In this document: positions 20,060 through 60,230 of the stretch, piece after piece
Layout of the letters: each line of letters begins with the position of its first letter
Numbering within the stretch: position 1 is the first letter of the stretch
Made by a program: the position numbers and the translations under genes
NCBI GenBank assembly: GCA_023248995.1
Contig: JAHFDN010000007.1
Span: 3,980 to 67,979 of the forward strand
Source: Candidatus Rokuibacteriota bacterium
Lineage (GTDB): Bacteria; Methylomirabilota; Methylomirabilia; Rokubacteriales; CSP1-6
Reading direction: 5' to 3'
Length of the DNA: 64,000 nucleotides
The notes under the pieces: generated by a model
Told to the model about the DNA's origin: nothing
Seen by the model: only the letters and a program-made list of their open reading frames with translations
The model's database searches: none

Positions 20060-21694
<1,635 letters not shown>

Positions 21695-21698
<4 letters not shown>

Positions 21699-23374: not shown

Positions 23375-23410
23375 GCCCTTCGCGTCTTCCTGACTCTGGA
23401 AGCCAGCGCT

Positions 23411-23821: not shown

Positions 23822-24128
23822 CGAACGGAGTTCCGACGCGGCAGGCTATCTCGGCTGGTTCTTCCTGGGGGCGCTGATGGGCGCGGCGGCCGCCCTGCTC
23901 CTGACTCCGCGGACCGGGGAGGAGACCCGCGAGCTGATCCGGGAGAAGGGAGGCGATTTCGCCAAGCGCGCCCAGGAGTACGCCAAAGACGCCCAGGTGC
24001 GGGCGGGCGAATTCCTCGACAAAGGGCGCGAGGTCTTGGAGGAGCACTCCCAGCGGCTCCTGACGGCGTTCGAAGCTGGCAAGGACGCCATGAAGGAGGA
24101 GATCGGCAAAGCTCGGCGGGACAGCTAG
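23814..24128 (+). CDS. YtxH-like protein
   Basis: ..GYLGWFFLGALMGAAAALLLTPRTGEETRELIREKG.. matches the YtxH N-terminal TM plus helical pattern. A GGAGGA Shine-Dalgarno sits 7 nt upstream of this ATG; start chosen over the track 23793. Confidence 0.5.
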   Translation: MADERSSDAAGYLGWFFLGALMGAAAALLLTPRTGEETRELIREKGGDFAKRAQEYAKDAQVRAGEFLDKGREVLEEHSQRLLTAFEAGKDAMKEEIGKARRDS

Positions 24129-24134
24129 CGAGAC

Positions 24135-24722: not shown

Positions 24723-24724
24723 TT

Positions 24725-24801
24725 CCTCGGAGGGGGCCTCGACGGCCCCCTCCGATTCCTCCCCCTAGGGTTGCGCTGGCATAGCCAGCGCTCGAACGGC
24801 C
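24725..24801. repeat. GC-rich intergenic repeat element, copy A (about 77 bp, two hairpins)
   Basis: Starts 3 nt after the DUF4337 stop, between convergent genes. Aligns to copies B and C. Contains GGAGGGGGCC-TCGAC-GGCCCCCTCC and GCGCTGGC-ATA-GCCAGCGC. Confidence 0.75.
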
Positions 24802-24881: not shown

Positions 24882-26282
24882 CTAGATGTGAATAGCTTGG
24901 CCGAGGGCCCCGAGCGTCGCCTCCAGCGCCGCTTCCGAGAGCGTCGGATGCGCGTGGATCGTGTGGATCAGCTCCTCGAGGGTTGCCTCCAGCGTCCTCC
25001 CCACCGCGAACTCGTGGATGAGCTCCGTGGCCTCGGGGCCCACGATGTGCACCCCCAGGATCTCCCCCGTCGCCTTGTCCGCCACCACCTTGAGGAACCC
25101 TTCGGCCTCCCCGAGGGCGACCGCTTTGCCGTTGGCCGAGAAGGGGAACCGCCCGACGGCCACCTCGCTGCCGCCGGCTTTCGCCTGCTCCTCCGTTTTG
25201 CCGATGGACGCCACCTGCGGGCGGCAGTAGGTGCAGCTCGGGACATTGGTGTAATCGAGGGAATCGGGCTTCCGCCCGGCGATCGCCTCGGCCGCGACGA
25301 CGCCCTCGGCCATCGCCTTGTGGGCGAGCAGCGGCGGACCCGCCATGTCGCCGATGGCGTAAACCCCAGCCACCGAGGTTTCCATGCGCGGCGAGACTTT
25401 GACGAACCCGCGCTCCAGGGCGACGCCGAGCGCCTCGAGGCCCACGTCTTTCACCTTGGCTGCGCGCCCCACGGCCATGAGCACCTGCTCCGCTTCGAGC
25501 CGCTCGGCCTTGCCGTCGGCCTCGATCTCAACGGTCACGGCCGCCTTGGCCGCTTTGACGGCCTGCACCTTCACGCCGGTCCGGATCCCGATCCCACGCC
25601 GGCTGAAGCAGCGCGCCACTTGCGAAGAGACCTCCTCGTCCTCCAGCGGGAGGACACGCGGCAGCGCCTCGAGCAGCGTGACCCGGACCCCGTATGCCGC
25701 ATAGACGTCGGCGAACTCCATGCCGACGGCGCCCGCCCCGACGATGATCAGCGACCCAGGCGCCCGCTCGAGGCGGACCGCTCCGTTGGAAGAAATGACG
25801 GACTGCTCGTCGATCGCGACGCCGGGCAGAGACTTGGGCTCCGACCCGGTGGCGAGGATCACGTGCCGCGCCTCCACCGTCTGACTCCCGCCGCCGGTCG
25901 CGACCTCCACCGCCGTGGGGCTCTTGAGCCGGCCCCGCCCCGCGAGGAGCGTGATCTTGTTCTTCTTGAAGAGGTACTCGACCCCCTTCGCCATCCGATC
26001 GGCAATCTTGCGGCTTCGCCGGATCGCCTCCGCATAATCCGCCTCGAAGCCGGACAGCTTGATCCCGAACTCGGCCGCCCGCTCGAAGAGGCCCACGACC
26101 TCGGCATTGCGGAGCAACGCCTTGGTGGGGATGCACCCCCAGTTGAGGCACACGCCCCCCGGGCGGTCGTCCTCGACCGCCGTCACGCGGAGCCCCAGCT
26201 GGGCGCAGCGGATGGCCGCGACGTAGCCGCCCGGCCCCGTCCCCACGACCAGGACGTCAACCTTCTCGGTCCCCAACGGCAT
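24882..26282 (-). CDS. lpdA: dihydrolipoyl dehydrogenase (E3)
   Basis: FAD motif ..VLVVGTGPGGYVAAIR.., redox disulfide ..GGVCLNWGCIPTKAL.., C-terminal ..HAHPTLSEA.. ATG start at MPLG; the track ORF begins at an upstream GTG. Confidence 0.9.
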   Translation of the reverse strand: MPLGTEKVDVLVVGTGPGGYVAAIRCAQLGLRVTAVEDDRPGGVCLNWGCIPTKALLRNAEVVGLFERAAEFGIKLSGFEADYAEAIRRSRKIADRMAKGVEYLFKKNKITLLAGRGRLKSPTAVEVATGGGSQTVEARHVILATGSEPKSLPGVAIDEQSVISSNGAVRLERAPGSLIIVGAGAVGMEFADVYAAYGVRVTLLEALPRVLPLEDEEVSSQVARCFSRRGIGIRTGVKVQAVKAAKAAVTVEIEADGKAERLEAEQVLMAVGRAAKVKDVGLEALGVALERGFVKVSPRMETSVAGVYAIGDMAGPPLLAHKAMAEGVVAAEAIAGRKPDSLDYTNVPSCTYCRPQVASIGKTEEQAKAGGSEVAVGRFPFSANGKAVALGEAEGFLKVVADKATGEILGVHIVGPEATELIHEFAVGRTLEATLEELIHTIHAHPTLSEAALEATLGALGQAIHI

Positions 26283-26292
26283 TTCTCCCTCC

Positions 26293-26344
26293 CCCCTCAC
26301 CTTTATCCTCTCCCCCGCAGGGGGGGAGAGGGCAGGGTGAGGGG
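26293..26344. other. nested GC hairpin between the E2 stop and lpdA start (intra-operon stem-loop)
   Basis: Inner stem CCTCTCCCCC-GCA-GGGGGGGAGAGG lies inside outer arms CCCCTCACC ... GGTGAGGGG. No downstream U-tract on the coding (minus) strand. Confidence 0.5.
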
Positions 26345-26348
26345 ATCT

Positions 26349-27683
26349 CTAGACCAGGAGACGGAGCGGCTCTTCCAGGAGCCGCCTCAGGTCCTGGAGG
26401 AAGCGCGCCCCCATCGCACCGTCCATCGCCCGGTGATCGCACGAGAGCGTGATCTGCATCCGCCGGCCCATCCCGATCCGCCCGTCCTCCACGACGGGCA
26501 CCACCTTCACCGCTCCGACGGCGAGGATCGCGCCCTCGGGCGGGTTGATGATCGCTGAGAATAGGTCCACGTCGAACATGCCGAGGTTGGAGATCGAGAA
26601 CGTGGCGCCCGAGAGCTCGGGAGCCCTGAGGCGCCGGTTGCGGGCGCGCTCCACCAGATCCCGCCCCTCCACGGCGATCTCGGCGAGCGACCTCGCCTCG
26701 CAGTTGCGGAGGACCGGCGTGATGAGCCCATCGTCCAGCGCCACCGCAAGTCCGATGTGCACCCGGTAGTGCACCCGGATCGTGTCGCCCTGGAACGAGG
26801 CGTTTACCTCCGGATGCTGGAGGAGCGCGAGCGCGCACGCCTTGACGATCATGTCGGTGACCGAGATCTTGGGCTGCCCATCGAGCGCGTTCAGCTCTTC
26901 CCGGAGCTCCCAGGCCCGGTCCATGGCGATCTCGCTCGTCAGGTAGAAGTGGGGGACGGGGCTCTTGGCCAGCGGCATCCGCTTGGCGATGACCGCCCGG
27001 ATCGAGGAAAGCGGCACGTCCTGGTACTCCACCCCGGGCACGGTCGGGACCTTTGCCGGCGCCACGACGGGCATTGGAGCTCCGCTCATCGCCCCCAGAA
27101 CGTCGCGGCGGACGATGCGCCCGCTCGGGCCGCTCCCATGGACGAGCCGGAGGTCAACGCCCGACTGGGCCGCGATCTTCTTCGCCAGCGGCGAGGCCTT
27201 CACGCGGCCACCCGGGACGCCGGCCGGCTCTCCTGCCGACGGCTCTGGGCCTCTGACCAGCGACCGGGGCGCGGGGACGGGGGTCGGGACCGGAGCGGCG
27301 GCACGCGCGGGAGCCGGCGGAGGCGCAGTCCCGGCAGGCTTCGGGGGCGCGGGAGGCGGCGGCGCGGCAGTCGGGGATGGCGACACGGCAGGAGCCGGGC
27401 TCGGCGCGGCGGCGCCGGCCAGGACGCCCGCGATGTCGTCGGCCGGCTCGGCGACGACGGCGATCAGCCCCCCTACGGGAGCCCGCGCGCCGGCCGGCAC
27501 CATGATCTTCCTGAGCACGCCCGTCCCGAAGGATTCGAGCTCGATGTCAGCCTTGTCCGTCTCGATCTCGGCAATGATCTCCCCGCCCTCGACCTTGTCC
27601 CCTTCCTCCTTCAGCCACTTGATGACCCTGCCGGTCTCCATGGCCTCCGAGAGCTTGGGCATCACCACTTTCGTGATCGCCAT
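26349..27683 (-). CDS. dihydrolipoamide acetyltransferase, E2 component of pyruvate dehydrogenase
   Basis: N-terminal lipoyl domain (..IAEIETDKADIELESFGTG..), Ala/Pro-rich linker, and catalytic domain ending ..LSCDHRAMDGAMGARFL.. Confidence 0.9.
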   Translation of the reverse strand: MAITKVVMPKLSEAMETGRVIKWLKEEGDKVEGGEIIAEIETDKADIELESFGTGVLRKIMVPAGARAPVGGLIAVVAEPADDIAGVLAGAAAPSPAPAVSPSPTAAPPPPAPPKPAGTAPPPAPARAAAPVPTPVPAPRSLVRGPEPSAGEPAGVPGGRVKASPLAKKIAAQSGVDLRLVHGSGPSGRIVRRDVLGAMSGAPMPVVAPAKVPTVPGVEYQDVPLSSIRAVIAKRMPLAKSPVPHFYLTSEIAMDRAWELREELNALDGQPKISVTDMIVKACALALLQHPEVNASFQGDTIRVHYRVHIGLAVALDDGLITPVLRNCEARSLAEIAVEGRDLVERARNRRLRAPELSGATFSISNLGMFDVDLFSAIINPPEGAILAVGAVKVVPVVEDGRIGMGRRMQITLSCDHRAMDGAMGARFLQDLRRLLEEPLRLLV

Positions 27684-27695
27684 GTCGAACCTCCG

Positions 27696-28676
27696 TCACG
27701 CGTAGCAGACCCGGCGGATGGCGGCGATGATCTTCTCCTTCGAGGGCGTCTTCGCTTGCTCCAGATTTTTCGCGTACGGCATGGGGGCGTTGGCGCCGGT
27801 GACCCGCTCCACCGGAGCGTCGAGGTCGTCGAAGGCGTTCTCGGTGATGAAAGCGACGATCTCCGATCCCATCCCGGCGAAACCGGCACCCGCTTCCACG
27901 ACCACCGCCCGGTGAGTCTTCCTGACGGAGCCGATCAACGTCTCGATGTCCATGGGCCGGAGCGTCCTGGGGTCAACGATCTCGCACGAGATCCCCTCCT
28001 GGGCCAGCGCCTCCGCCGTCTCCAGCGCCCGGTACATCATCCCCATGTAGGCGATCACCGTCACGTCCGTCCCCTCCCGGCGGATCTTCGCCCGGCCGAG
28101 CGGGATGGTGAAGTCCGCGTCGTCGGGGACCTCGCCCTTGATGCCGTAGAGCGTCTCGGACTCGATGAAGATGACCGGGTTCTCGTCGCGGATGGCGCTC
28201 TTCAAGAGCCCTTTCGCATCCTCGGGAGTGGAGGGGCGCACCACCTTGAGACCCGGCACGTGGTAGAAGTAGGACTCCATGGACTGGGAATGCTGAGCAG
28301 CCAGTTGATGGGCGGGTCCGCCCGGGCCGCGCACGACGATCGGGACGTTGAACTGCCCCCCCGACATGTAAGACATCTTGGCCGCGGAATTGACGATCTG
28401 ATCGAGCGCCAGGATGGCGAAGTTGAAGGTCATCATCTCCACCACCGGCCTGAGCCCCAGCATGGCGGCGCCGATCGCCACCCCCGTAAACCCGGACTCG
28501 CAGATCGGCGTGTCCATCACGCGCCGCTCGCCGAACTCCTTGAGGAGCCCCTGAGTCACCTTGTAGGCGCCGTCGTACACCCCGATCTCTTCGCCGAGGA
28601 GGAACACCCGCGGATCGCGCCGCATCTCTTCCCGCAGAGCCAGGTTCAGCGCCTCACGATACGTCATCACACTCAT
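27696..28676 (-). CDS. pdhB: pyruvate dehydrogenase E1 beta subunit
   Basis: Transketolase-like beta subunit pattern (..RVMDTPICESGFTGVAIGAAMLGLRPVVEMMTFNF..). Confidence 0.9.
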   Translation of the reverse strand: MSVMTYREALNLALREEMRRDPRVFLLGEEIGVYDGAYKVTQGLLKEFGERRVMDTPICESGFTGVAIGAAMLGLRPVVEMMTFNFAILALDQIVNSAAKMSYMSGGQFNVPIVVRGPGGPAHQLAAQHSQSMESYFYHVPGLKVVRPSTPEDAKGLLKSAIRDENPVIFIESETLYGIKGEVPDDADFTIPLGRAKIRREGTDVTVIAYMGMMYRALETAEALAQEGISCEIVDPRTLRPMDIETLIGSVRKTHRAVVVEAGAGFAGMGSEIVAFITENAFDDLDAPVERVTGANAPMPYAKNLEQAKTPSKEKIIAAIRRVCYA

Positions 28677-28690
28677 ACGCTACTCCTTCT

Positions 28691-28767
28691 CCTCGGAGGG
28701 GGGCTAGCGCCCCCCTTCCGAACCTCCCCCCGGGATGGCGAGGGCAAAGCCCTCGCTCGAAGCCGCC
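28691..28767. repeat. GC-rich intergenic repeat element, copy B (between pdhA stop and pdhB start)
   Basis: CCTCGGAGGGGGGCTAGCGCCCCCCTTCCGAACCTCCCCCCGGGATGGCGAGGGCAAAGCCCTCGCTCGAAGCCGCC. Confidence 0.75.
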
Positions 28768-28782
28768 TGATCGAACGTTGTC

Positions 28783-28807
28783 GGTCGTGCGACGGTTATC
28801 GACACGG
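28783..28807. repeat. 25-nt conserved motif GGTCGTGCGACGGTTATCGACACGG abutting the pdhA stop codon (copy 2 of 2)
   Basis: Ends 3 nt before the pdhA stop triplet. Immediately follows repeat element copy B. Confidence 0.6.
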
Positions 28808-28810
28808 CGC

Positions 28811-29809
28811 CTACTCCTTGAAGATGTCCGTGGTCAGCCACTCGAGCGGCGGCTCGGGGGAGGCGTCGGCGAAGGCCACGGCTTCGTCCACGAGGTCGTT
28901 GATGTCTTTCTCGATGGTTTTCACCTCGCCCTCCGTCAGGACTCCGTCCTTGAGACAGCGCCCCCGGAACAGCGCGATGGGGTCGCGCTGCTTCTCGCGC
29001 TCCACCTCTTCCTTCGTCCGGTAGATCGCCGCGGAGGGGTCGCGCATAGAGTGCCCCCGGAAACGGTACGTGCGCGCCTCGATCAGGCTGGGCCCCTGCC
29101 CCCGCCGGCCGCGCTCGACCGCCCGTCCGACGACCTCCCGCACCGCGAGGACGTCCATGCCGTCCACCGCCTCGCCGGCGATACCGTAGGTCTCCGCGTA
29201 GCGCCAGATCTCGGTTTGGGCCAGCGCCCGGTGGATGGCGGTCCCCATGGCATACCGGTTGTTCTCGCACAGGTAGATCACGGGGAGCTTCCAGAGGGCC
29301 GCGAGATTCAGCGATTCGTGGAATTCCCCCTGGGGCACCGCGCCGTCCCCGAAATAGCAGACGACCACCTGGTCGCCACCCTGGTACTTGACGGCGAAGG
29401 CGGCCCCCGCCGCCAGCGGCAGATGCGCGCCCACGATGGCGTGTCCTCCCAGGAAGTTCTTGGACTTGTCGAAGAGATGCATGGAGCCGCCCCTGCCTTT
29501 ACTCAGGCCGTCGCGGCGGCCAAAGAGCTCGGCCATGATGCGGCGCGGGTCCGACCCTTTCGCCAGGCAGTGGCCGTGCTCCCGGTAGGAGGAGATCGCG
29601 TAGTCGTCGGGCCTGAGCGCAGCCGTGGCCCCCACCGCAACCGCCTCCTCGCCGATGTAGAGGTGGAGGAAGCCGCCGATCTTGCCCAGGGCGTACATCT
29701 CCGCCGCCTTTTCCTCGAAGCGACGGATCAGGACCATCTGGGAGAGAAGCCGACGCGCCAGCTCGGCGTCCACCTTTGGCGCCACCGTTATTGCCTTCGC
29801 TTGAGCCAT
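28811..29809 (-). CDS. pdhA: pyruvate dehydrogenase E1 alpha subunit
   Basis: ThDP-binding ..GDGAVPQGEFHESLNLAALWKLPVIYLCENNRYAMGT.. Confidence 0.9.
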   Translation of the reverse strand: MAQAKAITVAPKVDAELARRLLSQMVLIRRFEEKAAEMYALGKIGGFLHLYIGEEAVAVGATAALRPDDYAISSYREHGHCLAKGSDPRRIMAELFGRRDGLSKGRGGSMHLFDKSKNFLGGHAIVGAHLPLAAGAAFAVKYQGGDQVVVCYFGDGAVPQGEFHESLNLAALWKLPVIYLCENNRYAMGTAIHRALAQTEIWRYAETYGIAGEAVDGMDVLAVREVVGRAVERGRRGQGPSLIEARTYRFRGHSMRDPSAAIYRTKEEVEREKQRDPIALFRGRCLKDGVLTEGEVKTIEKDINDLVDEAVAFADASPEPPLEWLTTDIFKE

Positions 29810-29824
29810 ACGTTCCCTCCGGGT

Positions 29825-30130
29825 TCACCAGCGCATCAGGCTCAGGTCGTCCACGGACAGCCTCCGGCGGAGCCTGAAGATGGCGACGATGATCGCCAGC
29901 CCGACGGCCACCTCCGCCGCGGCTACCGTCATCACGAAGAAGACTAGCACCTGCGCCTCGGCTGTGGCGAGCCCCGAGCCGAACGCCACCAGGGCCAGGT
30001 TGGCGGCGTTCAGCATCAACTCGATCGACATGAAGATCACGAGCGGGTTCCGGCGCACCAGGACTCCCACCACCCCGATCGCGAACAGGACCGCCGACAG
30101 CCCCGTATAGTACGCCTCGGGCACCATCAT
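29825..30130 (-). CDS. nuoK: NADH-quinone oxidoreductase subunit K (copy 1)
   Basis: 101-aa 3-TM NuoK/ND4L pattern (..[25 protein letters not shown]..). The track ORF has an upstream extension. Confidence 0.85.
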
Positions 30131-30645
30131 TCGCTCTTCCGTTTCGCGAGCGTAAGGACCCCCACCAGGGCGGCGAGGAGGAGGATCGACGTGACCTCGA
30201 AGGCAAAGAGGTAATCGCCCAGGAGGAGCCGGCCGACGGACTCGATCCCCCCCGCACGGACTCCGACCTGAGGCAGCGACGCCGCGCCTCCGACCCCACC
30301 CCCGCTCCGGCTGCCCCAGAGGACGAGGGCGATCTCGAGAAGAAGGAAAAGGCCCAGCGGCACGGCCATCAGGCGCTGCGAGCGAAGCGGATCCGGCCCC
30401 GTCTCCTCCTTGCCCGGGATCAGCACCATGATGGCGAAGACAAACAGGACCATGATCGCGCCGGCATAGATGATGACCTGTGCCAGGGCCAGGAACTCGG
30501 CGCCCAGGAGCAGGTAGAGCACCGCCACGCAACCCAGGTTCACCACCAGGAACAGGGCGCCGTGGATCGGGTTCCGGCGCAGCACCAGCGCCAGCGCCGA
30601 GGCCACCGCGACGATGGCCACGATGAGGAAGACCCCCAGCGCCAT
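30127..30645 (-). CDS. nuoJ: NADH-quinone oxidoreductase subunit J (copy 1)
   Basis: 172-aa NuoJ/ND6-like protein (..[28 protein letters not shown]..). Confidence 0.8.
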
Positions 30646-30647
30646 GG

Positions 30648-31202
30648 CTAGGGTCGCCGGTCCGGCGGAATCGAAATCGGGGACCGCGGCGTCCCGTCCG
30701 GCCCCGCCGGCTCCAAGGCCAGGAGCGTCTCTTTCGTGTAGATCATGCCCAGCCGACTGTAGGACGAGAATTCGAGAATGCCCGTGTCCATACGAATGGC
30801 ATCCTCCGGGCACGCCTCCACGCAGTAGCCGCAGAAGACGCACTTGCCGAGATCGATGTCGAAGCGCTCCGGATACTTTTCGATGTCCTGATTCGGATGC
30901 TCGGCCGCCACGATGTAGATGCAGTGCGCCGGACAGACCGTCTCGCACATCATGCACGCGACACAGCGCGGGGACCCATCCTCCCGACGGACCAATCGGT
31001 GGAGGCTCCGGAGCCGCGGGGAGTAGGGCCGCCGCTCCTCCGGGTACTGGAAGGTCACCGCCCCAGGCACCGTCTTGCGCCCGAAGACGTGGTGCGCGGT
31101 GTGGCGGCCCAGGTTCACGAAGAAGTGGGCTGCGGTGACCCCCAGGCCGATCAGCACTTCGGCGAGATAGAAGCGCTGCCGAAACTTCACGGACCCCTCC
31201 AC
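30648..31202 (-). CDS. nuoI: NADH-quinone oxidoreductase subunit I (copy 1)
   Basis: Two 4Fe-4S ferredoxin motifs ([12 protein letters not shown]; [12 protein letters not shown]). Confidence 0.9.
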
Positions 31203-32299
31203 GCGACCAACACAAGGCCCGTGGCGGCGACGTTCAGGATCGAGAGAGGGAAGAGCCCGAGCCAGCCGAGCCGCATGGCCTGATCATACCGGAAACGGGG
31301 GAGCGTCCAGCGGATCAGCATGAGGAACCAGCACACGACAGCGACCTTCAGGCAGAAGGCCAGCACCTGGAGCAGGGCGACCAGGGGCTGCGCCAGCGCG
31401 ACCGTCGCGCCCCAGGGAAAGCGGAAGCCGTCGCCGGCCAGGTAGGGCACCTGCCAGCCGCCCAGGAACAGCGCGGTCGTCAAGCCGGCGATCACCACGG
31501 TCTCCACGAAGTCCGCCATCATGAACATCCCGAACTTCATCCCGCTGTACTCCACGAAGTAGCCGATGATCTCGGATTCCCCCTCGGGGAAATCGAAGGG
31601 GATGCGCTTGGTGGCGGCCATGCCCGCCGCGAGGAAGAGGATAAAGGCGGGCAGCTGGGTGAAGATCCCCCACTTGGGGATCCAGTCCCCGAACCACTGG
31701 GGCAGCAGCGGCGCCCCCTGGCCGCGGATGATCTCCATCATGTCCAGCGAGCCGTAGACCATGGCGACGCCCATGATGGAGGCGCCGATGGCGACCTCGG
31801 CCGAGATCATCAGAGCGGCGGCGCGCTGGCCCCCCAGCAGGGCGTAGTTGTTGGCCGAGGCCCAGCCAGCCATCATCACCCCGAAGACGCCGAGAGACAG
31901 CATGGCGAACACGTAGAGGATCCCCGCGTTCAACGTGACCGCCTGGAGCGGGATCTCCCGGCCGCCGGCCCGGAGCACGTCGCCGAAGGGGATCGCGGCA
32001 AACGCCACCAGAGCAGAGACCACCGAGACGAAGGGCGCCAGCGTGAAGAGCGTCCGGTCCGCCCGCGCCGGGAGGAAGTCCTCCTTCGTGAGCATCTTGA
32101 TGGCGTCCGCCAGCGGGTGAAAGAGACCGAGGAGCCGGAGGCCGAAGATGGAGGCCCGGTTGGCCCCGATCCGGTCCTGCATGACCGCCGACTGCTTGCG
32201 CTCCACCCACGTCAGCAACCCTCCCATGGTGAGGACGAACAGCATGACGAAGGCGACCCGCCCGAAGGCGATCCCCAGGCCGGCCATCGTCGGCGTCAT
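31187..32299 (-). CDS. nuoH: NADH-quinone oxidoreductase subunit H (copy 1)
   Basis: NuoH/ND1 signature (..QDRIGANRASIFGLLQ..; ..EGESEIIGYFVEYSGMKFGMFMMAD..). ATG overlaps the nuoG stop. Confidence 0.9.
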   Translation of the reverse strand: MTPTMAGLGIAFGRVAFVMLFVLTMGGLLTWVERKQSAVMQDRIGANRASIFGLRLLGLFHPLADAIKMLTKEDFLPARADRTLFTLAPFVSVVSALVAFAAIPFGDVLRAGGREIPLQAVTLNAGILYVFAMLSLGVFGVMMAGWASANNYALLGGQRAAALMISAEVAIGASIMGVAMVYGSLDMMEIIRGQGAPLLPQWFGDWIPKWGIFTQLPAFILFLAAGMAATKRIPFDFPEGESEIIGYFVEYSGMKFGMFMMADFVETVVIAGLTTALFLGGWQVPYLAGDGFRFPWGATVALAQPLVALLQVLAFCLKVAVVCWFLMLIRWTLPRFRYDQAMRLGWLGLFPLSILNVAATGLVLVAWRGP

Positions 32300-33900
32300 G
32301 CCGTCGCCGCCTCTTTGCCGAAGTCTCCGAGCTCCCGGTAGGAGAGGCCGGCGAAGGCCGGCACCCCGGCCGCCAGGGACTTGAAGGAGTCCTCGGCCCT
32401 GCCCGGCACCGCGCCCAGCCCCAGCGCATCGCCGATGCGGGCGAGGATCTCCCAATCGGAGAGCGACGCGCCCGGGGGCTCCACCGCCTTCCAGAAGCGC
32501 TGGACGCGGCCCTCGAAGTTGGTGAAGGTCCCCTCCCGCTCCACCCAGGTCGCGCTGGGCAGCAGAACATCCGCGTCGGGGCTGATCCCGTTGGCGTTCG
32601 AGCCCTGGAAGATGAACCAGTCCAGGGCGCGGAGGGCTTCCCGGATCTCCGATCCGGGCCAGGCCGAGGCCAGGAGATCGTGGTGGAACACCCAGAGGCC
32701 CTTGAGCCGGCGCTCGCGCGCCGCTCTCAGCATCCCGCGCGCGTCCAGCCCGCCGGCCCGCGGCGCGAGCCCGATCAGCTCGGCCCCCCGCGTGTTGGGA
32801 TTCTTGTCGGCCTTGATCAGGATCCGATCCTCGTCCCCCGGGCGCCCGGGCGGAACGCGGAAATCCACGTTGGCGATCCCCAGGTGCTCCACGAGCCGCT
32901 TCAAGACGAAGAGGTCCTCGTTGGCCATCCGGGGGGAGGCGAGGACGCCGATCTCATCCGGCCGGTAGTCCCGGAGCCGGGCGGCAACCAGCGGCACCAT
33001 TTCATCCCAGCCGACCTCCCGAGCCGCGTTCTCCCGCCCGCGCGTCGGAAAGAGGAGACGGCTCGCGTCGTCCACGAACTTCCCGCCGTAGCGGCCGGCG
33101 TCGCAGATCCACCACTGGTTGACCTCCGGGTTCTCGCGCGGCTTGAGACGCGCCACCCGGTGCCCCTGGTTATGGTGAGGTCGGCGCAGATTGTAGTGGA
33201 CCTCGATGTTGCAGCCGCGGCTGCACCCCGGGCAGACCGACTTCGCCGTCTCCAGGTACCAGACGCGGACCGCGAAGCGGAAGTCGCGGTCGGTCAGCGC
33301 CCCCACCGGGCAGATGTCCACCACGTTCGCCGAGTAGGGATTCGCCAGCTCCTTGCCGGGGAAGAGCCCGATCTCGGAGTGATCGCCGCGCTGGAAGATC
33401 CCGAGCTCCCCCGTGCCCGTGATCTCGTCGCAGAACCGGACGCAGCGGGAACAGAGGATGCAGCGCTCGGCGTCGAGGATGACATGAGGACCCAGGGGTA
33501 CGGCCTTAGGCTTGTGAACCTTCTCGTCCACCATCCGCGGCTCGTAGAGCCCGTGCTTCATGTAGTAGATCTGGAGCCAGCACTCCCCGGCCTGGTCGCA
33601 CACGGGGCAGTCCAGCGGGTGGTTGATCAGATGGAACTCCATGACGGACTGCCGGGTCTCGAGCACCTTCGGCGTCTCGGTGCGCACCACCATCCCGTCG
33701 GCGGCCAGGGTGTTGCAGGCGATCTGAGGCCGCGGGCTGTTTCCGACATCCACCATGCAGAGGCGGCACTGCCCGGCGATCGAGAGCCCGGGATGGTAGC
33801 AGTAATAGGGGACCTCGATCCCCAGCCTCCGGGCCGCCTCGATGAGGTTGGTCCCGGCGGGGACTTCGACCTCCCTACCGTCGATCGTAAGCTTGGGCAT
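32296..33900 (-). CDS. nuoG: NADH-quinone oxidoreductase subunit G (short form, 534 aa)
   Basis: N-terminal 2Fe-2S (C..C..C) and 4Fe-4S ligands (..HPLDCPVCDQAGEC..; ..CILCSRCVRFCDE..). The molybdopterin-like domain is truncated. Confidence 0.85.
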   Translation of the reverse strand: MPKLTIDGREVEVPAGTNLIEAARRLGIEVPYYCYHPGLSIAGQCRLCMVDVGNSPRPQIACNTLAADGMVVRTETPKVLETRQSVMEFHLINHPLDCPVCDQAGECWLQIYYMKHGLYEPRMVDEKVHKPKAVPLGPHVILDAERCILCSRCVRFCDEITGTGELGIFQRGDHSEIGLFPGKELANPYSANVVDICPVGALTDRDFRFAVRVWYLETAKSVCPGCSRGCNIEVHYNLRRPHHNQGHRVARLKPRENPEVNQWWICDAGRYGGKFVDDASRLLFPTRGRENAAREVGWDEMVPLVAARLRDYRPDEIGVLASPRMANEDLFVLKRLVEHLGIANVDFRVPPGRPGDEDRILIKADKNPNTRGAELIGLAPRAGGLDARGMLRAARERRLKGLWVFHHDLLASAWPGSEIREALRALDWFIFQGSNANGISPDADVLLPSATWVEREGTFTNFEGRVQRFWKAVEPPGASLSDWEILARIGDALGLGAVPGRAEDSFKSLAAGVPAFAGLSYRELGDFGKEAATA

Positions 33901-33903
33901 CGC

Positions 33904-35148
33904 CTATTTCGGGATCAAGGCTTCGAACTCGTCCCGGAACTTCTCGATGTAGCTGATGTACGGGCCCACCGCCCCGTCGTAGAAGGCGCAAATGGTGGTG
34001 CCGGCGCCGCGGCGGGCCACATCCAGAATGGTATCCAGCTCTTCCTTGCGCCCTCTCCCCTCCACGATGCGGCGGGTCATCTTGTAGATCCAGCCGGTGG
34101 ACTCGCGACACGGCGTGCACTGCCCGCACGACTCGTGGGCGTAGAAGCGCGCCACGATCATCAGCGCCTCCGGGATCGAGACGCTCTCGTCCATGACGAT
34201 CACGCCCGCGGATCCGGCCATTGTGCCCGCGTTCTTCAGTCCGTCCACGTCCATCGTGACGTCGATCTCGTCGGCCGTGAGGATGGGAGCCGACGAGCCG
34301 CCGGGAACGACGGCCTTGAGGCGCCGCCCGTTGGCGATCCCGCCGGCGTGCTCGGAGATCAGCGAGCGCAGGGTCACCGACACGGGCAGCTCGTACACTC
34401 CCGGCCGGGCGACGCGTCCCGACACCGAATACATCCTGGTTCCGCCCTGGCCGGCGGTGCCCAGCGCGGCGAACCACGACGCCCCCCGCTGGACGATGTG
34501 GGGAACGTGGCAGATGGTCTCCACGTTGTTGACGATGGTGGGCGCGCCGAAGGCGCCGCGGACCGCCGGGAACGGCGGCTTCAGCTTCGGCCACCCTTTC
34601 TTCCCCTCGAGCGACGAGATCAACCCGGTTTCCTCACCGCAGATGTAGGCACCCGCCCCCCGATGGACGACGACGTCCAGGTCGACCCCGGATCCCAGGA
34701 TGCTTTTCCCGAGAAACCCGGCGTCGTACGCCTCCTGGACCGCCCGGCTGAAGATGCGCCACGGCTGGACGTACTCGCCCCGGACGTAGACGAAGGCCAG
34801 TCGGGAGCCGATGGCGTGCGCCGAGACGATCATCCCCTCGATCAGCCCATGGGGGTCCTTTTCGAGGAGGTAGCGGTCCTTGAAGGTCCCCGGCTCGCCC
34901 TCGTCGGCATTGATCACCAGGTAGACCGGCCCCTGGTGCCCCTTGGGGATGAACCCCCACTTGACTCCCGTGGGAAAGCCAGCCCCTCCGAGACCACGCA
35001 AATTCGACCTCTTGACCGTCTCGATGATCGTGGCCGGCGCCATGGCGAGCACATCGGAGAGCCCCTCGTAGCCGCCCGTCTCGCGGTAGACCCTGAGGGT
35101 GTGCGACTCGGGAAGGTGAAAGTTCCGCGTCAGGATGCGCTCGGCCAT
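33904..35148 (-). CDS. nuoF: NADH-quinone oxidoreductase subunit F
   Basis: NADH/FMN-binding 51-kDa subunit (..GLRGLGGAGFPTGVKW..; ..VINADEGEPGTFKDR..; ..ESCGQCTPCREST..). Confidence 0.95.
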   Translation of the reverse strand: MAERILTRNFHLPESHTLRVYRETGGYEGLSDVLAMAPATIIETVKRSNLRGLGGAGFPTGVKWGFIPKGHQGPVYLVINADEGEPGTFKDRYLLEKDPHGLIEGMIVSAHAIGSRLAFVYVRGEYVQPWRIFSRAVQEAYDAGFLGKSILGSGVDLDVVVHRGAGAYICGEETGLISSLEGKKGWPKLKPPFPAVRGAFGAPTIVNNVETICHVPHIVQRGASWFAALGTAGQGGTRMYSVSGRVARPGVYELPVSVTLRSLISEHAGGIANGRRLKAVVPGGSSAPILTADEIDVTMDVDGLKNAGTMAGSAGVIVMDESVSIPEALMIVARFYAHESCGQCTPCRESTGWIYKMTRRIVEGRGRKEELDTILDVARRGAGTTICAFYDGAVGPYISYIEKFRDEFEALIPK

Positions 35149-35634
35149 CTACTCGAGCCCTTCGAGAATCCGGTCAATCTTCGCGGGAGTCAGGTTCCCC
35201 TCGTAGCGGTCATCCACCTGCAGCATGGGGGCCATCTCACACGCGCAGAGGCATTCCACCGCGAGGAGCGTGACCCGGCCGTCGGCGGTCGTCGCGCCCA
35301 CGTCCACCCCGAGCCGCATCCTGAGGTGCGCCAGGACGGTCGGAGCGCCCTCCAGGTGACAGGTCAGGTTGTGACAGACGCTCACCACGTGTCGACCCTT
35401 CGGCTCCTGAAAGAAGAGGGTGTAGAAGGTGACGACCTCGTGCACGTGGGCGGGCGGCAGGTCGAACAACCCCGCCACATACTCCTCCGCCTCGAGCGAG
35501 ATGTAGCCGAAGGTGTCCTGGACGAGCTGGAGCACTGGCAGGAGCGCCGCGCGCTTGTCGGGGTAGAGCGCCTGGAGCCGCCGCACCAGGGCGAGCTCTC
35601 CGGCCGTGAACTGCACGGCGGCGGGACGGCTCAC
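35149..35634 (-). CDS. nuoE: NADH-quinone oxidoreductase subunit E
   Basis: 24-kDa thioredoxin-like subunit with 2Fe-2S ligands (..VCHNLTCHLEG..; ..VECLCACEMAP..). GTG start overlaps the nuoD stop. Confidence 0.85.
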   Translation of the reverse strand: MSRPAAVQFTAGELALVRRLQALYPDKRAALLPVLQLVQDTFGYISLEAEEYVAGLFDLPPAHVHEVVTFYTLFFQEPKGRHVVSVCHNLTCHLEGAPTVLAHLRMRLGVDVGATTADGRVTLLAVECLCACEMAPMLQVDDRYEGNLTPAKIDRILEGLE

Positions 35635-37004
35635 CGGTCCAGTTCCCCGCCGATCATGTTGACCGACCCGAAGGTGGGGACCACGTCGGCGACCATCCCG
35701 CCCTCGATCATCCGGTGAAGCGCGGCCATCGGCGGAAAGCACGGCGGCCGGCACCGGACGCGGTAGGGGCGATCGGTCCCGTCGGAGACGACGTAGAACC
35801 CCAGCTCGCCGTTGGCCCCCTCCACAGGAAAGTAGGCCGCGCCCCGGGGCGGTCGGATTCCGTTCCCCTCCATGATCAGCATGAAGTGGTTCATGAGCCC
35901 CTCGATGGACCCGTAGGCCTCTTCCTTCGGCGGAAGCACGACGCGCTTGTCCGACACGTTCACCCGATGGTGAACCGGCCGCTCCAGCCCCTCCAGGTTG
36001 GGCGACAGGGTGATCGGGATCAGCAGGAGCCCCTCCGTCTTCCCCTGCTTGCCCAGGTCCACGTACGTGGCGGGGTCCATGGGCTTCCCCTGGAAGTCCA
36101 CGTTGATGGGGCCGCCGGGGATCGCGTCGAGCGCCTGCTCCACGATCCGCATGGACTGTTCCATCTCGACCATCCGGACCAGGTACCGGTCGTAGTTGTC
36201 CCCGTTCCGGCCGGTGGGAACCTCGAACTCCACGCGGTCGTAGGCCCAGTACGGCTGCGCCCGCCTTACGTCGTACGGCACGCCGGCGGCCCTGAGCATC
36301 GGCCCCGTGATCGCGTAGGCGACGGTGTCCTCCCGGGAGAGGACGCCCACCCCCACCAGACGGTCCATGAAGATGCGGTTCCCCGTGAGAAGCTTGTGCA
36401 CTTCCTCGAGCACCTGGCGGGTTTCCTTGAAGGCTTTGCAGAGCTTCAGGGCAAACCCCTCCGGCAGGTCGGCCTTGACCCCCCCGACCCGCGCGTACGA
36501 GATGGTGAGGCGCGCGCCGGTCACGTCCTCCACGAGCTCCCAGAGGTACTCCCGGGCCTTGATCATGTACAGAAAGACCGTGAAGGCGCCGAGCTCCATC
36601 GCCGAGGCCCCGATGCACGTGAGGTGATCGCAGATCCGGGAGATCTCGCTCATGATCACCCGGATGTACTGGCAGCGCTCGGTCGCGTCGATCCCCAGGA
36701 GCTTCTCGACGCAGGAGGTGTAGCCGAAGTTGTTGATGAGAGGGGAGACGTAGTTGAGGCGGTCGGTGTACGGGATGGCGTTATTGTACGGACCTCCCTC
36801 GCACTCCTTCTCGAAGGCCCGGTGCAGGTAGCCGATCTCCACATCCGCCTTTACCACGGTCTCGCCGTCGAGCTCAGCGAGGATCCGGATGATCCCGTGC
36901 ATGGCCGGGTGGGCCGGGCCCACGTTGACGTAGAGGTGCTGGGACCCCGAGCCGGTCCCGCTTCCCTCGCCCAGATAAATCTCGCGCGTCGTGCGTTCGG
37001 CCAC
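35631..37004 (-). CDS. nuoD: NADH-quinone oxidoreductase subunit D (copy 1; 457 aa, longer than copy 2)
   Basis: ..NVGPAHPAMHGIIRI.. and C-terminal ..RVRCRPPCFPPMAALH.. An extra segment of about 50 aa relative to copy 2 sits in the C-terminal third. Confidence 0.9.
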   Translation of the reverse strand: MAERTTREIYLGEGSGTGSGSQHLYVNVGPAHPAMHGIIRILAELDGETVVKADVEIGYLHRAFEKECEGGPYNNAIPYTDRLNYVSPLINNFGYTSCVEKLLGIDATERCQYIRVIMSEISRICDHLTCIGASAMELGAFTVFLYMIKAREYLWELVEDVTGARLTISYARVGGVKADLPEGFALKLCKAFKETRQVLEEVHKLLTGNRIFMDRLVGVGVLSREDTVAYAITGPMLRAAGVPYDVRRAQPYWAYDRVEFEVPTGRNGDNYDRYLVRMVEMEQSMRIVEQALDAIPGGPINVDFQGKPMDPATYVDLGKQGKTEGLLLIPITLSPNLEGLERPVHHRVNVSDKRVVLPPKEEAYGSIEGLMNHFMLIMEGNGIRPPRGAAYFPVEGANGELGFYVVSDGTDRPYRVRCRPPCFPPMAALHRMIEGGMVADVVPTFGSVNMIGGELDR

Positions 37005-37008
37005 CTGG

Positions 37009-37506
37009 CTAAATCCTGGGACCGATGAGTGGCTGGCGCTTGTTCACCGGATAGTCCTTCCGGAGCGGATGCCCCTCGAACTCCTCGTACATGAGGAGCC
37101 GCCGGAGGTCGGGATGGCCGTCAAAGCGGATCCCGAACATGTCCCACACCTCACGCTCGAACCAGTTGGCGATGGGCCAGAGCCCCACCGCGCTCGGAAC
37201 ATGCGCCTCGTCCTCCTCCACGCGCACCTGGAGCCTCACCCGGTGATTACACGGCAGCGAGTAGAGGTGATAGACCACCTCGAAGCGGGGGCCGAACTCG
37301 CGACCGGGATACTTGAGATAATCCACCGCGGTGAGATCCATGAGGACGTCGAACCTGAGCGCCGGGTCGTCACGGCAGAATTCCAACACGTCCAGGACCG
37401 CCGACCGGTCCACCATCGCCGAGTGATCGCCGCGGTAGTCGTGGGTCTCCAGAATCCGACCGCCGAAGGCCGCGGTCAACCGCGCAAGAATCACCTGTCC
37501 GTCCAT
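37009..37506 (-). CDS. nuoC: NADH-quinone oxidoreductase subunit C
   Basis: 30-kDa subunit pattern (..WPIANWFEREVWDMFGIRFDGHPDLRRLL..). Not fused to nuoD. Confidence 0.85.
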   Translation of the reverse strand: MDGQVILARLTAAFGGRILETHDYRGDHSAMVDRSAVLDVLEFCRDDPALRFDVLMDLTAVDYLKYPGREFGPRFEVVYHLYSLPCNHRVRLQVRVEEDEAHVPSAVGLWPIANWFEREVWDMFGIRFDGHPDLRRLLMYEEFEGHPLRKDYPVNKRQPLIGPRI

Positions 37507-37535
37507 CGACTCGGGAGAGGGCTGCTGGCCGCGAC

Positions 37536-37994
37536 CTAGTAACGCTGAGTCCCGGCCGCGATTTTGTCCTGGAGCTTCATCAGGCCATCGAGCACGCTCT
37601 CGGGGCGGGGCGGGCAGCCGGGGATGTACACGTCCACGGGGATGATCGTGTCGATCCCCATGACCGTGGCGTAATTGTCGTAGAAGCCCCCCGTGCAGGT
37701 GCAGACCCCGAAGGCCACCACCCACTTGGGCTCGCACATCTGATCGTAGATCCGCTTCAGCACCGGCGCCATCTTGTGGCTGATCGTCCCCACCACGAAG
37801 AGCACGTCCGCCTGGCGGGGGGAGAACCGGGGCAAGCCCGCGCCAAACCGGTCCACGTCATAGTGAGAGCAGGCGGTGGCCATGTACTCCATGCCGCAAC
37901 ACGCCGTGACGAACGGGTACTGAAAGATGGAGTACTTCCGCGCCCACCCGATGGCCTCATCGAGCTTGCCGGTGAAGAACCCGCCTACTCCCAC
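37536..37994 (-). CDS. nuoB: NADH-quinone oxidoreductase subunit B
   Basis: N2 cluster ligands (..FVTACCGMEYM..; ..GVCTCTGGFY..; ..IPGCPPRPE..). Probable GTG start. Confidence 0.85.
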   Translation of the reverse strand: MGVGGFFTGKLDEAIGWARKYSIFQYPFVTACCGMEYMATACSHYDVDRFGAGLPRFSPRQADVLFVVGTISHKMAPVLKRIYDQMCEPKWVVAFGVCTCTGGFYDNYATVMGIDTIIPVDVYIPGCPPRPESVLDGLMKLQDKIAAGTQRY

Positions 37995-38335
37995 TCGAAG
38001 CCCCCCTTCTTCCACATGTAGAGGAACCCCAGCATCAGGATGCCGAGGAACACAAGCATGGCGAAATAGCCCGCCCAGCCCAGCCGCCGCACCTGCACCG
38101 CCCAGGGGAAAATCAGCATCACTTCGATGTCGAAGATGATGAAGAAAATCGCCACGGTCGAAAACTTGACGGCGAAGCGCCCTTCCGGGATCGCGACCGG
38201 GTCCATGCCGCACTCGAACGGCTCGGCCTTCACCGGGCTCGGCCGGCGCGGAGCGACGAGCTTCGGGAGCCCCATCATCGCGCCCGCCACGGCCGCGGCG
38301 AAGGCGAAGACCATCACGATCGGCGCGTACTCCAC
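37985..38335 (-). CDS. nuoA: NADH-quinone oxidoreductase subunit A
   Basis: About 116-aa 3-TM NuoA/ND3 pattern (..PFECGMDPV..FSTVAIFFIIFDIEV..). Probable GTG start abutting the lipA stop. Confidence 0.75.
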   Translation of the reverse strand: MEYAPIVMVFAFAAAVAGAMMGLPKLVAPRRPSPVKAEPFECGMDPVAIPEGRFAVKFSTVAIFFIIFDIEVMLIFPWAVQVRRLGWAGYFAMLVFLGILMLGFLYMWKKGGFEWE

Positions 38336-39237
38336 TAGGCGCTCCCGAGGCCTGCCGCCTGGCGCTTGGCGTGGTAGGAGCTCCTGACGAGCGGCCCGGC
38401 CTCCACGTGAGCGAACCCCATCCACCGGCCCTCCTCCGCCAACTCCCTGAACTCGTCCGGGTGGTAGAAGCGGGCGACCGGCAGGTGCCGGGAGGAAGGG
38501 CGGAGGTACTGGCCCAGCGTCAGGATGTTCACGTCCGCGCCGCGCAGGTCGCTCATGGTGGCCAGCAGCTCCCCGCGCTCCTCGCCCAGCCCGACGATGA
38601 TCCCGGACTTGGTCAGGAGCGGGGGGACGCGGCCGCGCGCACGCCGGAAGAGCTCCAGCGTCCGTTCGTAGCGCCCGCCATGCCGCGCCAGCCTATAGAG
38701 GCGCGGCACGGTCTCGGTGTTGTGGTTCAAGATGTCCGGCCGGGCCTCCAGCACCGTCTCGAGCGCCTCGGCCGATCCCTGGAAGTCGGGGATCAACACC
38801 TCGACCTGGCACCCCGGCGCCTCCCGGCGGATGGCGCGCACCGTGGCAGCGAACACCGCCGCGCCCCCGTCGGCCAGATCGTCCCGGTTCACCGAGGTAA
38901 CCACCACGTGCTCCAGGCCGAGCGTCCGCACCGCCTGTCCCACGCGCTCCGGCTCCTCTCGGTCCTCCCACGTCGGACGCCCATGGGTGACGGCGCAGTA
39001 GCCGCAGTTGCGCGTGCACACGTCGCCCAGGATCATGAACGTGGCGGTGAGGTCCTCCCAGCACTCTCCGATGTTGGGGCAGTGGGCCTCTTCGCACACG
39101 CTGTGCAGCTTCCACTCCCGCATGAGCCCCTTGAGGCGGATATAGCGCGGGCCGCCCGGGGCCCGCACCTTGAGCCAAGCGGGCTTCCGTGCGTCGGGGG
39201 AAGCGGGGGTCTCCAGGAGGGGAAGAGAAATTCCCAT
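38335..39237 (-). CDS. lipA: lipoyl synthase
   Basis: Radical-SAM and auxiliary cluster cysteines (..[12 protein letters not shown]..; ..[10 protein letters not shown]..). The track ORF extends upstream through a tRNA gene and is an artefact; the true ATG is at MGISLPLL. Confidence 0.9.
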
Positions 39238-39270
39238 AGCGTCTTGGTCCTTCACTCGCCGCGCCGATTC

Positions 39271-39300
39271 ATTATGCCACACCCGTCGAGACCCGCCAAG
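39271..39300 (-). promoter_or_regulatory. candidate promoter of the lipA-nuo-pdh array (TTGGCG-N18-TGgCATAAT, extended -10)
   Basis: Read on the minus strand, TGGCATAAT sits about 27 nt upstream of the lipA ATG, with a GAAGGA Shine-Dalgarno between. Confidence 0.4.
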
Positions 39301-39311
39301 GCGGGCACGCG

Positions 39312-39337
39312 AAAAAGGCCCCCGACGAGCGGGAGCC
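39312..39337 (-). terminator. intrinsic terminator downstream of tRNA-Leu
   Basis: Minus-strand RNA GGCUCCCG-CUCGU-CGGGGGCC forms an 8-bp stem. It is followed by UUUUU, 9 nt after the tRNA 3' end. Confidence 0.55.
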
Positions 39338-39346
39338 CGGAAGGCA

Positions 39347-39431
<85 letters not shown>

Positions 39432-60226: not shown

Positions 60227-60230
60227 AACC

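Follow-up and report, generated by a model that had tools for sequence, protein, structure and literature searches.

A co-directional array of lipA, nuoA-K and pyruvate dehydrogenase genes

We analyzed a stretch of DNA of 64,000 nucleotides (nt) from a Candidatus Rokuibacteriota bacterium (contig JAHFDN010000007.1; hereafter the window), which has a G+C content of 68%. On its minus strand, at 24882-39237, we observed an array of 16 co-directional genes in the order lipA, nuoABCDEFGHIJK, pdhA, pdhB, E2 and lpd, encoding lipoyl synthase, complex I subunits and pyruvate dehydrogenase (PDH). A preliminary description had proposed this arrangement, and NCBIfam models confirmed 16 of the 16 genes. 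The gene boundaries agree with independent gene calls on a public contig of identical sequence. Proteins named Candidatus Rokubacteria, Rokuibacteriota or Methylomirabilota match NuoD of the window at 82-100% identity, which places the source in the Rokubacteriales; exact look-ups of NuoF and of a gene at the far window end gave no match. As described earlier, this is not a canonical nuoA-N operon, since the nuo genes of the array end at nuoK and pdhA follows.

Read along the minus strand, the array opens with lipA (38335-39237), encoding a lipoyl synthase of 300 amino acids (aa) (TIGR00510, 365.7 bits; cut-off 310.3). Its translation contains both the radical S-adenosylmethionine motif CxxxCxxC (CTRNCGYC) and the CxxxxCxxxxxC motif of the auxiliary cluster. 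It is followed by nuoA (37985-38335, 116 aa, GTG start) and nuoB (37536-37994, 152 aa), both assigned by NCBIfam, nuoB above cut-off and with the CC pair among its cysteines for cluster N2. Next come nuoC (37009-37506, 165 aa; TIGR01961, 149 bits, cut-off 122) and nuoD (35631-37004, 457 aa; NF004739, 465 bits, cut-off 360), whose product retains MHG and PYTDRLNY and, with them, the quinone-site histidine and tyrosine. The N module consists of nuoE (35149-35634, 161 aa; TIGR01958, 147.7 bits, cut-off 142.4), nuoF (33904-35148, 414 aa; TIGR01959, 574.9 bits, cut-off 558.7) and a short form of nuoG (32296-33900, 534 aa). The score of NuoG against TIGR01973 (433.6 bits) is below the equivalog cut-off of 470 because its C-terminal domain is short. 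Motifs read from the N-module translations include the 2Fe-2S cysteines of NuoE, the flavin mononucleotide/NADH motif GAGAYICGEET and the N3 cysteines (ESCGQCTPCR) of NuoF, HPLDCPVCDQAGEC, and the visible N1b/N4/N5 motifs of NuoG.

The remaining complex I genes are nuoH (31187-32299, 370 aa), nuoI (30648-31190, 180 aa, above cut-off, with two CxxCxxCxxxCP motifs for 4Fe-4S clusters) and nuoJ (30127-30645, 172 aa), all assigned by NCBIfam, and nuoK (29825-30130, 100-101 aa; NF004320, 120.9 bits, cut-off 57), which keeps both membrane glutamates (SIELML, AAAEVA). The array thus contains the N module, the Q module and the proximal membrane subunits A/H/J/K with their cofactor motifs; the antiporter-like subunits L/M/N are not encoded with the rest of the enzyme.

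Behind nuoK lie pdhA for PDH E1 alpha (28811-29809, 332 aa; TIGR03182, 466.3 bits, cut-off 393.9), pdhB for E1 beta (27696-28676, 326 aa; NF006667, 502.9 bits, cut-off 321), the gene for the E2 dihydrolipoamide acetyltransferase (26349-27683, 444 aa; TIGR01349, 422.5 bits, just under the cut-off of 445) and lpd for the E3 dihydrolipoyl dehydrogenase (24882-26282, 466 aa; TIGR01350, 561.5 bits, cut-off 408.8). E2 combines a single lipoyl domain (ETDKA) with an E3-binding domain and carries the catalytic motif DHRxxDG (DHRAMDG), and the Pfam domains Biotin_lipoyl, E3_binding and 2-oxoacid_dh are recorded on an identical protein. Its presumed substrate, pyruvate as against another 2-oxoacid, is assigned through the match of E1. 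E3 contains the redox disulfide CLNWGC. The array genes are without visible decay: cofactor and catalytic motifs are intact in the translations of NuoF, E, B, D, I, G and K, LipA, E1, E2 and E3.

Six junctions overlap, in agreement with the overlapping start and stop codons noted before: lipA/nuoA by 1 nt, with the lipA stop and the nuoA GTG start sharing TAGTG, nuoA/nuoB by 10 nt, nuoD/nuoE, nuoG/nuoH (ATGA) and nuoH/nuoI by 4 nt each, and nuoJ/nuoK by 1-4 nt. At nuoE/nuoF the genes abut (0 nt). The gaps measure 29 nt (nuoB/nuoC), 4 nt (nuoC/nuoD), 3 nt (nuoF/nuoG), 2 nt (nuoI/nuoJ), 15 nt (nuoK/pdhA), 134 nt (pdhA/pdhB), 12 nt (pdhB/E2) and 66 nt (E2/lpd). The largest lies inside pdh and not at a module boundary. 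nuoK and pdhA are direct neighbors as reported, although their spacer, which contains GGAGGG, is 15 and not 16 nt long.

Gene order is conserved in Rokubacteriales

Related loci were collected by a scan of one genome per species with an alignment of both NuoH paralogs of the window, which returned 80 loci, all of the NuoH1 type found in the array. These loci, together with those from exact look-ups, were mapped by tblastn and gave 63 Rokubacteriales species-level loci with NuoH 74-88% identical. We observed that lipA adjoins nuoA in 41 of 41 loci that reach this junction, and nuoK adjoins pdhA in 51 of 51. Complete lipA-to-lpd arrays are present in 29 loci, and the few apparent exceptions are contig ends. 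One locus (L003) carries a different gene upstream of lipA, with the array unchanged. Based on open reading frames (ORFs), the median gap among relatives is -1 nt at lipA/nuoA and 24 nt at nuoK/pdhA, and the 10-nt overlap of nuoA and nuoB is invariant (44 of 44 relatives). Identity among relatives is 84-97% for NuoB and 74-90% for NuoK. No nuoL/M/N homolog was found within the 10-kb flanks on either side of nuoH in any of the 63 loci.

A promoter-like box precedes lipA

A promoter scan and a footprint among relatives located a candidate promoter of the array on the minus strand at 39271-39299, with the -35 element TTGGCG (39294-39299), a 17-nt spacer and the extended -10 box TGGCATAAT (39271-39279), in which TG precedes CATAAT. 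The preliminary description had placed it at 39271-39300 with an 18-nt spacer; the site held, and spacer and span are revised to 17 nt and 39299-39271. It shares the 16 kb scanned with just one other sigma-70-like site. The lipA ribosome-binding site GAAGGA (about 39247-39252) and the ATG start follow.

Among the relatives, TGGCATAAT, or more loosely TGNNATAAT, stands 12-35 nt before the lipA start in 41/41 loci with intact upstream sequence. The surroundings of this conserved box are variable throughout, the -35 region and the upstream gene included. Counted over all arrays, the coding strand holds 43 copies of TGNNATAAT, and 41 of them are upstream of lipA; by our own estimate about 5 copies would be expected from base composition in the roughly 0.8 Mb searched. 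The remaining two belong to a duplicated repeat that lies ahead of pdhA in a single genome (L031). The window has one copy on its minus strand, at 39279. No evidence available is stronger than this distribution for a transcription start of the array before lipA, which in most species would be the only one of this promoter type.

The 5' boundary of the array is marked by a terminator (39312-39338; a folded 9-base-pair hairpin followed by UUUUU) behind the upstream neighbor, a tRNA-Leu(GAG) gene on the minus strand (39347-39431; ARAGORN, Rfam tRNA 50 bits) that has its own promoter-like site at 39475-39446. The 3' end carries, on the minus strand at 24722-24799, a two-hairpin element that includes a 12-base-pair GC hairpin (24727-24755; fold, z -4.4) and sits between lpd and a convergent gene on the plus strand (24135-24722). 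It is likely a terminator without a U-tract. Within the array, a pattern scan covering sigma-70-type promoters and U-tract terminators found neither at lipA/nuoA or nuoK/pdhA, the two junctions at which separate signals would have reduced the array to ordinary adjacency according to the preliminary description. The same scan gave no consensus site elsewhere inside the array, and Rfam returned no element there.

Repeat elements occupy spacers of the array

Sequence comparison and folding identified a 78-nt two-hairpin repeat on the minus strand inside the 134-nt pdhA/pdhB spacer (28688-28764). Two further copies, also on the minus strand, are the element after lpd (24722-24799) and one between nuoK2 and nuoL of a second complex I operon described below (60228-60305). 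The three copies have a mean column identity of 84%, and a covariance model built from them found no further copy in the window. In 1.08 Mb of related loci the model found 21 copies, mostly along the direction of transcription, in the F/G, G/H, C/D, D/E, H/I and L/M spacers and after lpd (examples are L009:8225-8301, L006:2981-3058 and L092:11903-11983). In the hairpins 90% of cells are paired and ten pairs are changed on both sides, values reached by 0 of 500 shuffles; these compensatory changes, in an alignment that had been fitted to the model, indicate that the hairpins are maintained. The element has no Rfam entry and looks like a REP- (repetitive extragenic palindrome) or MITE-like (miniature inverted-repeat transposable element) sequence, or an RNA-stability element, of Rokubacteriales.

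We considered whether the 134-nt pdhA/pdhB gap is an operon break or a regulatory RNA, and rejected both: it has no Rfam hit, and it contains a lineage-specific 78-nt insertion that also occurs between nuoK2 and nuoL. In most relatives pdhA and pdhB are separated by 1-4 nt or overlap, and the sporadic gaps of 100-300 nt at scattered junctions of relatives are insertions of the same repeat. Since the genes on either side of it encode obligate partners within a single enzyme, the element cannot be an efficient terminator, and its position between pdhA and pdhB is therefore no argument for an operon break.

Two other spacers have features of their own. Immediately before the lpd ribosome-binding site, the E2/lpd spacer of the window folds into a long stem-loop with almost perfect pairing (26292-26345, minus strand; -41.5 kcal/mol, z -2.8). 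E2/lpd is also the most variable junction among relatives, 27% of which have more than 100 nt here, and together the stem-loop and the variable gap hint at separate control of lpd. At nuoK/pdhA, the spacers of a minority of relatives are 90-300 nt long (L031, 12430-12602; L011, L016, L027, L044 and L047) and contain one to three copies of a second short repeat, GTGCGAGCC...CGAGGCGAGCCTGAGATAATC, which ends in an AT-rich -10-like box. The nuoK/pdhA spacer of the window is without such an AT-rich repeat.

The array as a probable transcription unit

We consider it likely that the array is a genuine operon-like unit, conserved across the order Rokubacteriales of the phylum Methylomirabilota, with lipA, nuoA-K and pdh-lpd behind one promoter. 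The preliminary description had spoken of one apparent transcription unit. Conserved order, operon-like spacing and the footprinted promoter support this, and from them we infer co-transcription, most likely as one long mRNA. The terminator behind the tRNA gene and the strong hairpin behind lpd enclose the unit on its two sides. In particular, one promoter and one transcription unit are supported because the extended -10 box sits before lipA in all 41 loci and almost nowhere else in the arrays. The layout would run from the extended -10 promoter through lipA, nuoABCDEFGHIJK, pdhA, pdhB, E2 and lpd to the GC-rich hairpin before the convergent gene, and translation would be coupled at many junctions. 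Lipoyl synthase, the lipoate-dependent, NADH-producing PDH and the NADH-oxidizing, quinone-reducing part of complex I (N module EFG, Q module BCDI and the proximal membrane subunits A, H, J and K) would then be made together, and NuoL/M/N for this core would come from outside the array.

The alternative is mere adjacency, in which lipA, nuoA-K and pdh-lpd would be three independent transcription units, each with its own promoter and terminator. It gains from the nuoK/pdhA junction, whose median gap of 24 nt is the largest among the array junctions and which, in a minority of species, widens to 100-300 nt and includes AT-rich boxes, and from the promoter scan having covered the sigma-70 type. 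In the window, however, the lipA stop overlaps the nuoA start, and the 15 nt between nuoK and pdhA hold only a ribosome-binding site. The neighbors are kept in 41/41 and 51/51 species although NuoH diverges down to 74% identity and the flanks have changed, the conserved -10 box stands before lipA only, and neither module junction has a terminator-like site. We therefore regard three independent units as improbable.

Several observations nevertheless count against a single, uniformly transcribed unit with a joint function. The nuoK/pdhA spacer exceeds 100 nt in 14% of relatives and there contains AT-rich repeat boxes, one of which holds TGAGATAAT; the second short repeat may be a secondary promoter for pdh in these minority lineages. 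Promoters other than sigma-70 may lie within coding regions, and the strongly structured E2/lpd and pdhA/pdhB spacers might attenuate read-through. It is also unusual for a complex I core to have no antiporter-like subunit linked to it. Physiological coupling, with NADH made by PDH and burnt by complex I, is plausible, and it is adjacency of the genes that suggests it. An assembly artifact or chimera is ruled out by the identical gene order on more than 50 independent assemblies.

Short NuoG and a NuoD insertion characterize a complex I clade

The preliminary description had listed a truncated NuoG of 534 aa and a NuoD with an extra segment of about 50 aa. Compared with solved 49-kDa subunits, residues 13-303 and 348-457 of NuoD align and an insertion of about 45 aa lies between them. 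Compared with solved 75-kDa subunits, residues 3-365 of NuoG match the Fe-S domain and the beginning of the C-terminal domain, and a second aligned stretch covers residues 426-499; about 170 residues are missing mid-protein and about 90 at the end, leaving the N-terminal Fe-S domain complete and the molybdopterin-like C-terminal domain reduced. In relatives the median lengths are 457 aa for NuoD and 537 aa for NuoG, and in outgroup loci from Omnitrophota, Planctomycetes and Vicinamibacteria NuoD has 441-474 aa and NuoG 523-572 aa. NuoG is indeed short, but its conserved length in relatives and in three other phyla rules out a truncated gene or pseudogene. The NuoD insertion is likewise real and not peculiar to this genome: an alignment of the array NuoD with five outgroup NuoDs has it at the same site with shared motifs, as found in Omnitrophota, Planctomycetes and Vicinamibacteria, and it is absent from NuoD2 of the second operon. 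On this sequence comparison, short NuoG and the NuoD insertion are traits of a whole complex I clade that extends over several phyla, a clade defined here and not a named family.

The outgroup proteins are 59-67% (NuoH) and 63-70% (NuoD) identical to those of the array. Their genes are laid out as nuoA-I plus a separate nuoJKLMN, which is convergent downstream in Omnitrophota and Planctomycetes and upstream in Vicinamibacteria. Because nuoJKLMN is convergent or upstream in all outgroup loci, the distal membrane genes are always a separate unit in this clade. Compared with these outgroups, Rokubacteriales have nuoJ and nuoK joined to nuoA-I, pdh after nuoK, and no L/M/N nearby. Neither lipA nor pdh occurs in any of the 18 outgroup loci.

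In several outgroup loci from Omnitrophota and Vicinamibacteria (L067:5521-7386, L074, L077, L080, L082 and L083), single ORFs of 600-810 aa, as called from the longest start, match NuoE and NuoF, which suggests a nuoE-nuoF fusion. The two are separate genes in Rokubacteriales and Planctomycetes loci.

A second complex I operon of the 11-subunit type

The window and a public contig together revealed a second complex I operon on the minus strand from 55453 to the window end at 64000 and beyond it. It lies 16 kb upstream of the array on the same strand and holds the only L/M/N genes of the window. The part within the window comprises the 3' end of a NIPSNAP gene (about 63776-64000), nuoD2 (62609-63772), nuoH2 (61644-62612), nuoI2 (61124-61654), nuoJ2 (60633-61127), nuoK2 (60334-60636), nuoL (58406-60226), nuoM (56859-58406) and nuoN (55453-56862). 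A public contig with identical NuoD2 has nuoA2, nuoB2, nuoC2 and a 211-aa NIPSNAP gene ahead of nuoD2, giving the order nuoA2B2C2-NIPSNAP-D2H2I2J2K2LMN. With A2-C2 taken from that contig, subunits A, B, C, D, H, I, J, K, L, M and N are contiguous and nuoEFG are absent, as in the 11-subunit type. The earlier statement that L/M/N are missing from the array and occur only in a second cluster at 55.4-60.2 kb holds within the window (55453-60226), with the amendment that this cluster is not L/M/N alone and forms part of a whole 11-subunit-type operon.

The second operon is conserved in related metagenome contigs (L089, L092, L093 and L096). The NIPSNAP protein, encoded between nuoC2 and nuoD2, has two NIPSNAP domains; its gene is present in the same four contigs and not in L095. 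Literature searches turned up no report of a nuo operon that carries a NIPSNAP gene. Among relatives of this cluster (L085-L099), NuoL is markedly less conserved (52-69% identity) than NuoM (74-81%), NuoD2 (78-84%) and NuoK2 (66-83%).

The two complex I clusters are distant paralogs. By BLASTP, array and second-operon proteins are 33% (D), 34% (H), 34% (I), 33% (J) and 48% (K) identical, and the two NuoH proteins are 40% identical in a MAFFT alignment. L/M/N of the second operon are 39-48% identical to outgroup L/M/N, and the cluster of the second-operon NuoL is not among the 150 best 50%-identity representatives for a clade-matched NuoL; this does not support the idea that they are translocated genes of the array cluster.

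Between the two clusters lie obg, proB, proA, nadD, dksA, gap, pgk, tpiA, secG and an opp transporter. Downstream of the array, at 20031-23245 (minus strand), are genes for methylmalonyl-CoA mutase and a carboxyltransferase of the methylmalonyl-CoA decarboxylase alpha (MmdA) subfamily. Between these and the array, at 23369-24722 (plus strand), are two small genes without a family match; the plus-strand gene starting at about 23411 has another TGNNATAAT box ahead of it, at 23366.

Where the array-encoded core could obtain NuoL/M/N

Somewhat short of an even chance is our estimate for an ordinary split operon, in which a clade-matched nuoLMN set, or further nuo genes, lies unlinked elsewhere in the genome, as in other bacteria whose nuo genes are dispersed, and the array is remarkable only for its neighbors. 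The layout of the clade favors this, as its distal membrane genes are always apart from nuoA-I, convergent or upstream. In addition, split and subunit-lacking ("NUO14minus") nuo clusters are a recognized category (Degli Esposti 2015, PMC4758237), and Rokubacteria genomes are large (PMC5712423). Against it, the 10 kb to either side of nuoH showed no such locus in any of 63 genomes, and searches for a clade-matched NuoL returned no Rokubacteria sequence. The latter is a weak negative, with results saturated by other phyla. A protein search with Planctomycetia/Omnitrophota NuoL was filled by Omnitrophota of at least 64% identity, and gave no Rokubacteria match. A search of a representative library gave none assignable to Rokubacteria among proteins returned without taxonomy. 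A NuoL profile search with high-GC representatives returned Verrucomicrobiota and no Rokubacteria, again a weak negative. A metagenome scan with the second-operon NuoL yielded orthologs of its own cluster and unrelated NuoLs, which is a similarly weak negative for a third nuoLMN.

The contrasting view is that Rokubacteriales possess two complex I cores, one NADH-linked, with EFG and expressed together with PDH, the other of the 11-subunit type with a NIPSNAP protein, and a single antiporter set, so that either L/M/N are shared or the PDH-linked enzyme works without an L/M/N pump module. We propose this only tentatively.

Sharing, taken by itself, is possible but doubtful. NuoL/M/N of the second operon would complete both cores, so that a 14-subunit form would depend on NADH and an 11-subunit form on a different donor. 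Consistent with this, neither the array nor the 10-kb nuoH flanks contain L/M/N in any of the 63 relatives, and the only L/M/N in 64 kb sit in the second operon, on the same strand and 16 kb upstream. NuoK of the array retains both proton-path glutamates, and the proximal membrane stub looks built for handover to a pump module. A precedent is provided by cyanobacterial NDH-1, in which antiporter-like subunits are exchanged modularly on a common core. However, NuoK and NuoJ of the array are no closer to NuoK2 and NuoJ2 (48% and 33% identity) than to outgroup NuoK and NuoJ (46-55% and 35-40%), and hence nothing suggests that they have adapted to one and the same NuoN. The low identity of the second-operon L/M/N to those of the array's own clade also speaks against sharing, as does the presence of a separate JKLMN set in every outgroup.

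A pump-less enzyme, that is, an NADH:quinone oxidoreductase that lacks antiporter-like subunits and would move few or no protons, via the NuoH/A/J/K channel only, appears unlikely. The absence of L/M/N is conserved beside intact genes under purifying selection, as judged from the NuoB and NuoK identities given above, and in E. coli and Yarrowia complex I remains partly active when its distal pump modules are missing. On the other side, we know of no natural complex I-family enzyme that lacks all antiporter-like subunits, loss of NuoN prevents complex I assembly in model systems, and L/M/N genes are available in the same genome.

Implications and comparison with known systems

If the array is the operon-like unit we propose, its gene order would tie lipoyl cofactor synthesis, the production of NADH from pyruvate and the re-oxidation of NADH at the membrane into one regulatory unit, and this order runs throughout a widespread, uncultured soil lineage. 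It also raises a question of complex I modularity, namely where a conserved, intact nuoA-K core gets its proton-pumping subunits. With only one L/M/N set, this would be natural sharing of a pump module or a pump-less complex I, either of which bears on assembly and coupling of the enzyme; with a second L/M/N set, what remains would be an ordinary, if unusual, rearrangement of an operon. No account of a complex I operon joined to pyruvate dehydrogenase and lipA turned up in the searchable literature, and complex I is not mentioned at gene level in the published Rokubacteria genome descriptions searched.

The array resembles the canonical nuoA-N operon (nqo1-14; E. coli, Paracoccus, Thermus) in the families and order of A-K, in its complete N, Q and proximal P modules, and in its overlapping or abutting cistrons. 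It differs in that it stops at nuoK without nuoL/M/N and places lipA before and pdhA-pdhB-E2-lpd after the nuo genes in one compact unit. In addition, its NuoG is about 250-370 aa shorter than that of Thermus or E. coli, and its NuoD has the 45-aa insertion. Dispersal of nuo genes has a parallel in Aquifex aeolicus, where they lie at multiple loci. The nuoA-I plus nuoJKLMN clusters of Omnitrophota, Planctomycetes and Vicinamibacteria belong to the same clade, and there too the genes of the distal membrane arm stand apart from nuoA-I; the array, in contrast, breaks after K and not after I, has no L/M/N nearby and is fused to lipA and pdh.

The 11-subunit complex I consists of nuoABCDHIJKLMN without EFG (Moparthi and Hagerhall 2011, PMC3144371). 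The second operon of the window is of this type, with the addition of a NIPSNAP gene between nuoC and nuoD, and the array is its complement, with EFG present and LMN missing. For the question of sharing only, cyanobacterial NDH-1 offers a comparison: it combines one core with several NdhD/NdhF pump modules, as against the two cores and one pump module that there would be here. Finally, pdhA-pdhB-pdhC(E2)-lpd clusters with a nearby lipA occur in alphaproteobacteria and Gram-positives. The array shares with them the heterotetrameric E1 alpha/beta PDH, the internal gene order and the linkage to lipoate synthesis, and differs from them by the eleven complex I genes that stand between lipA and pdhA.

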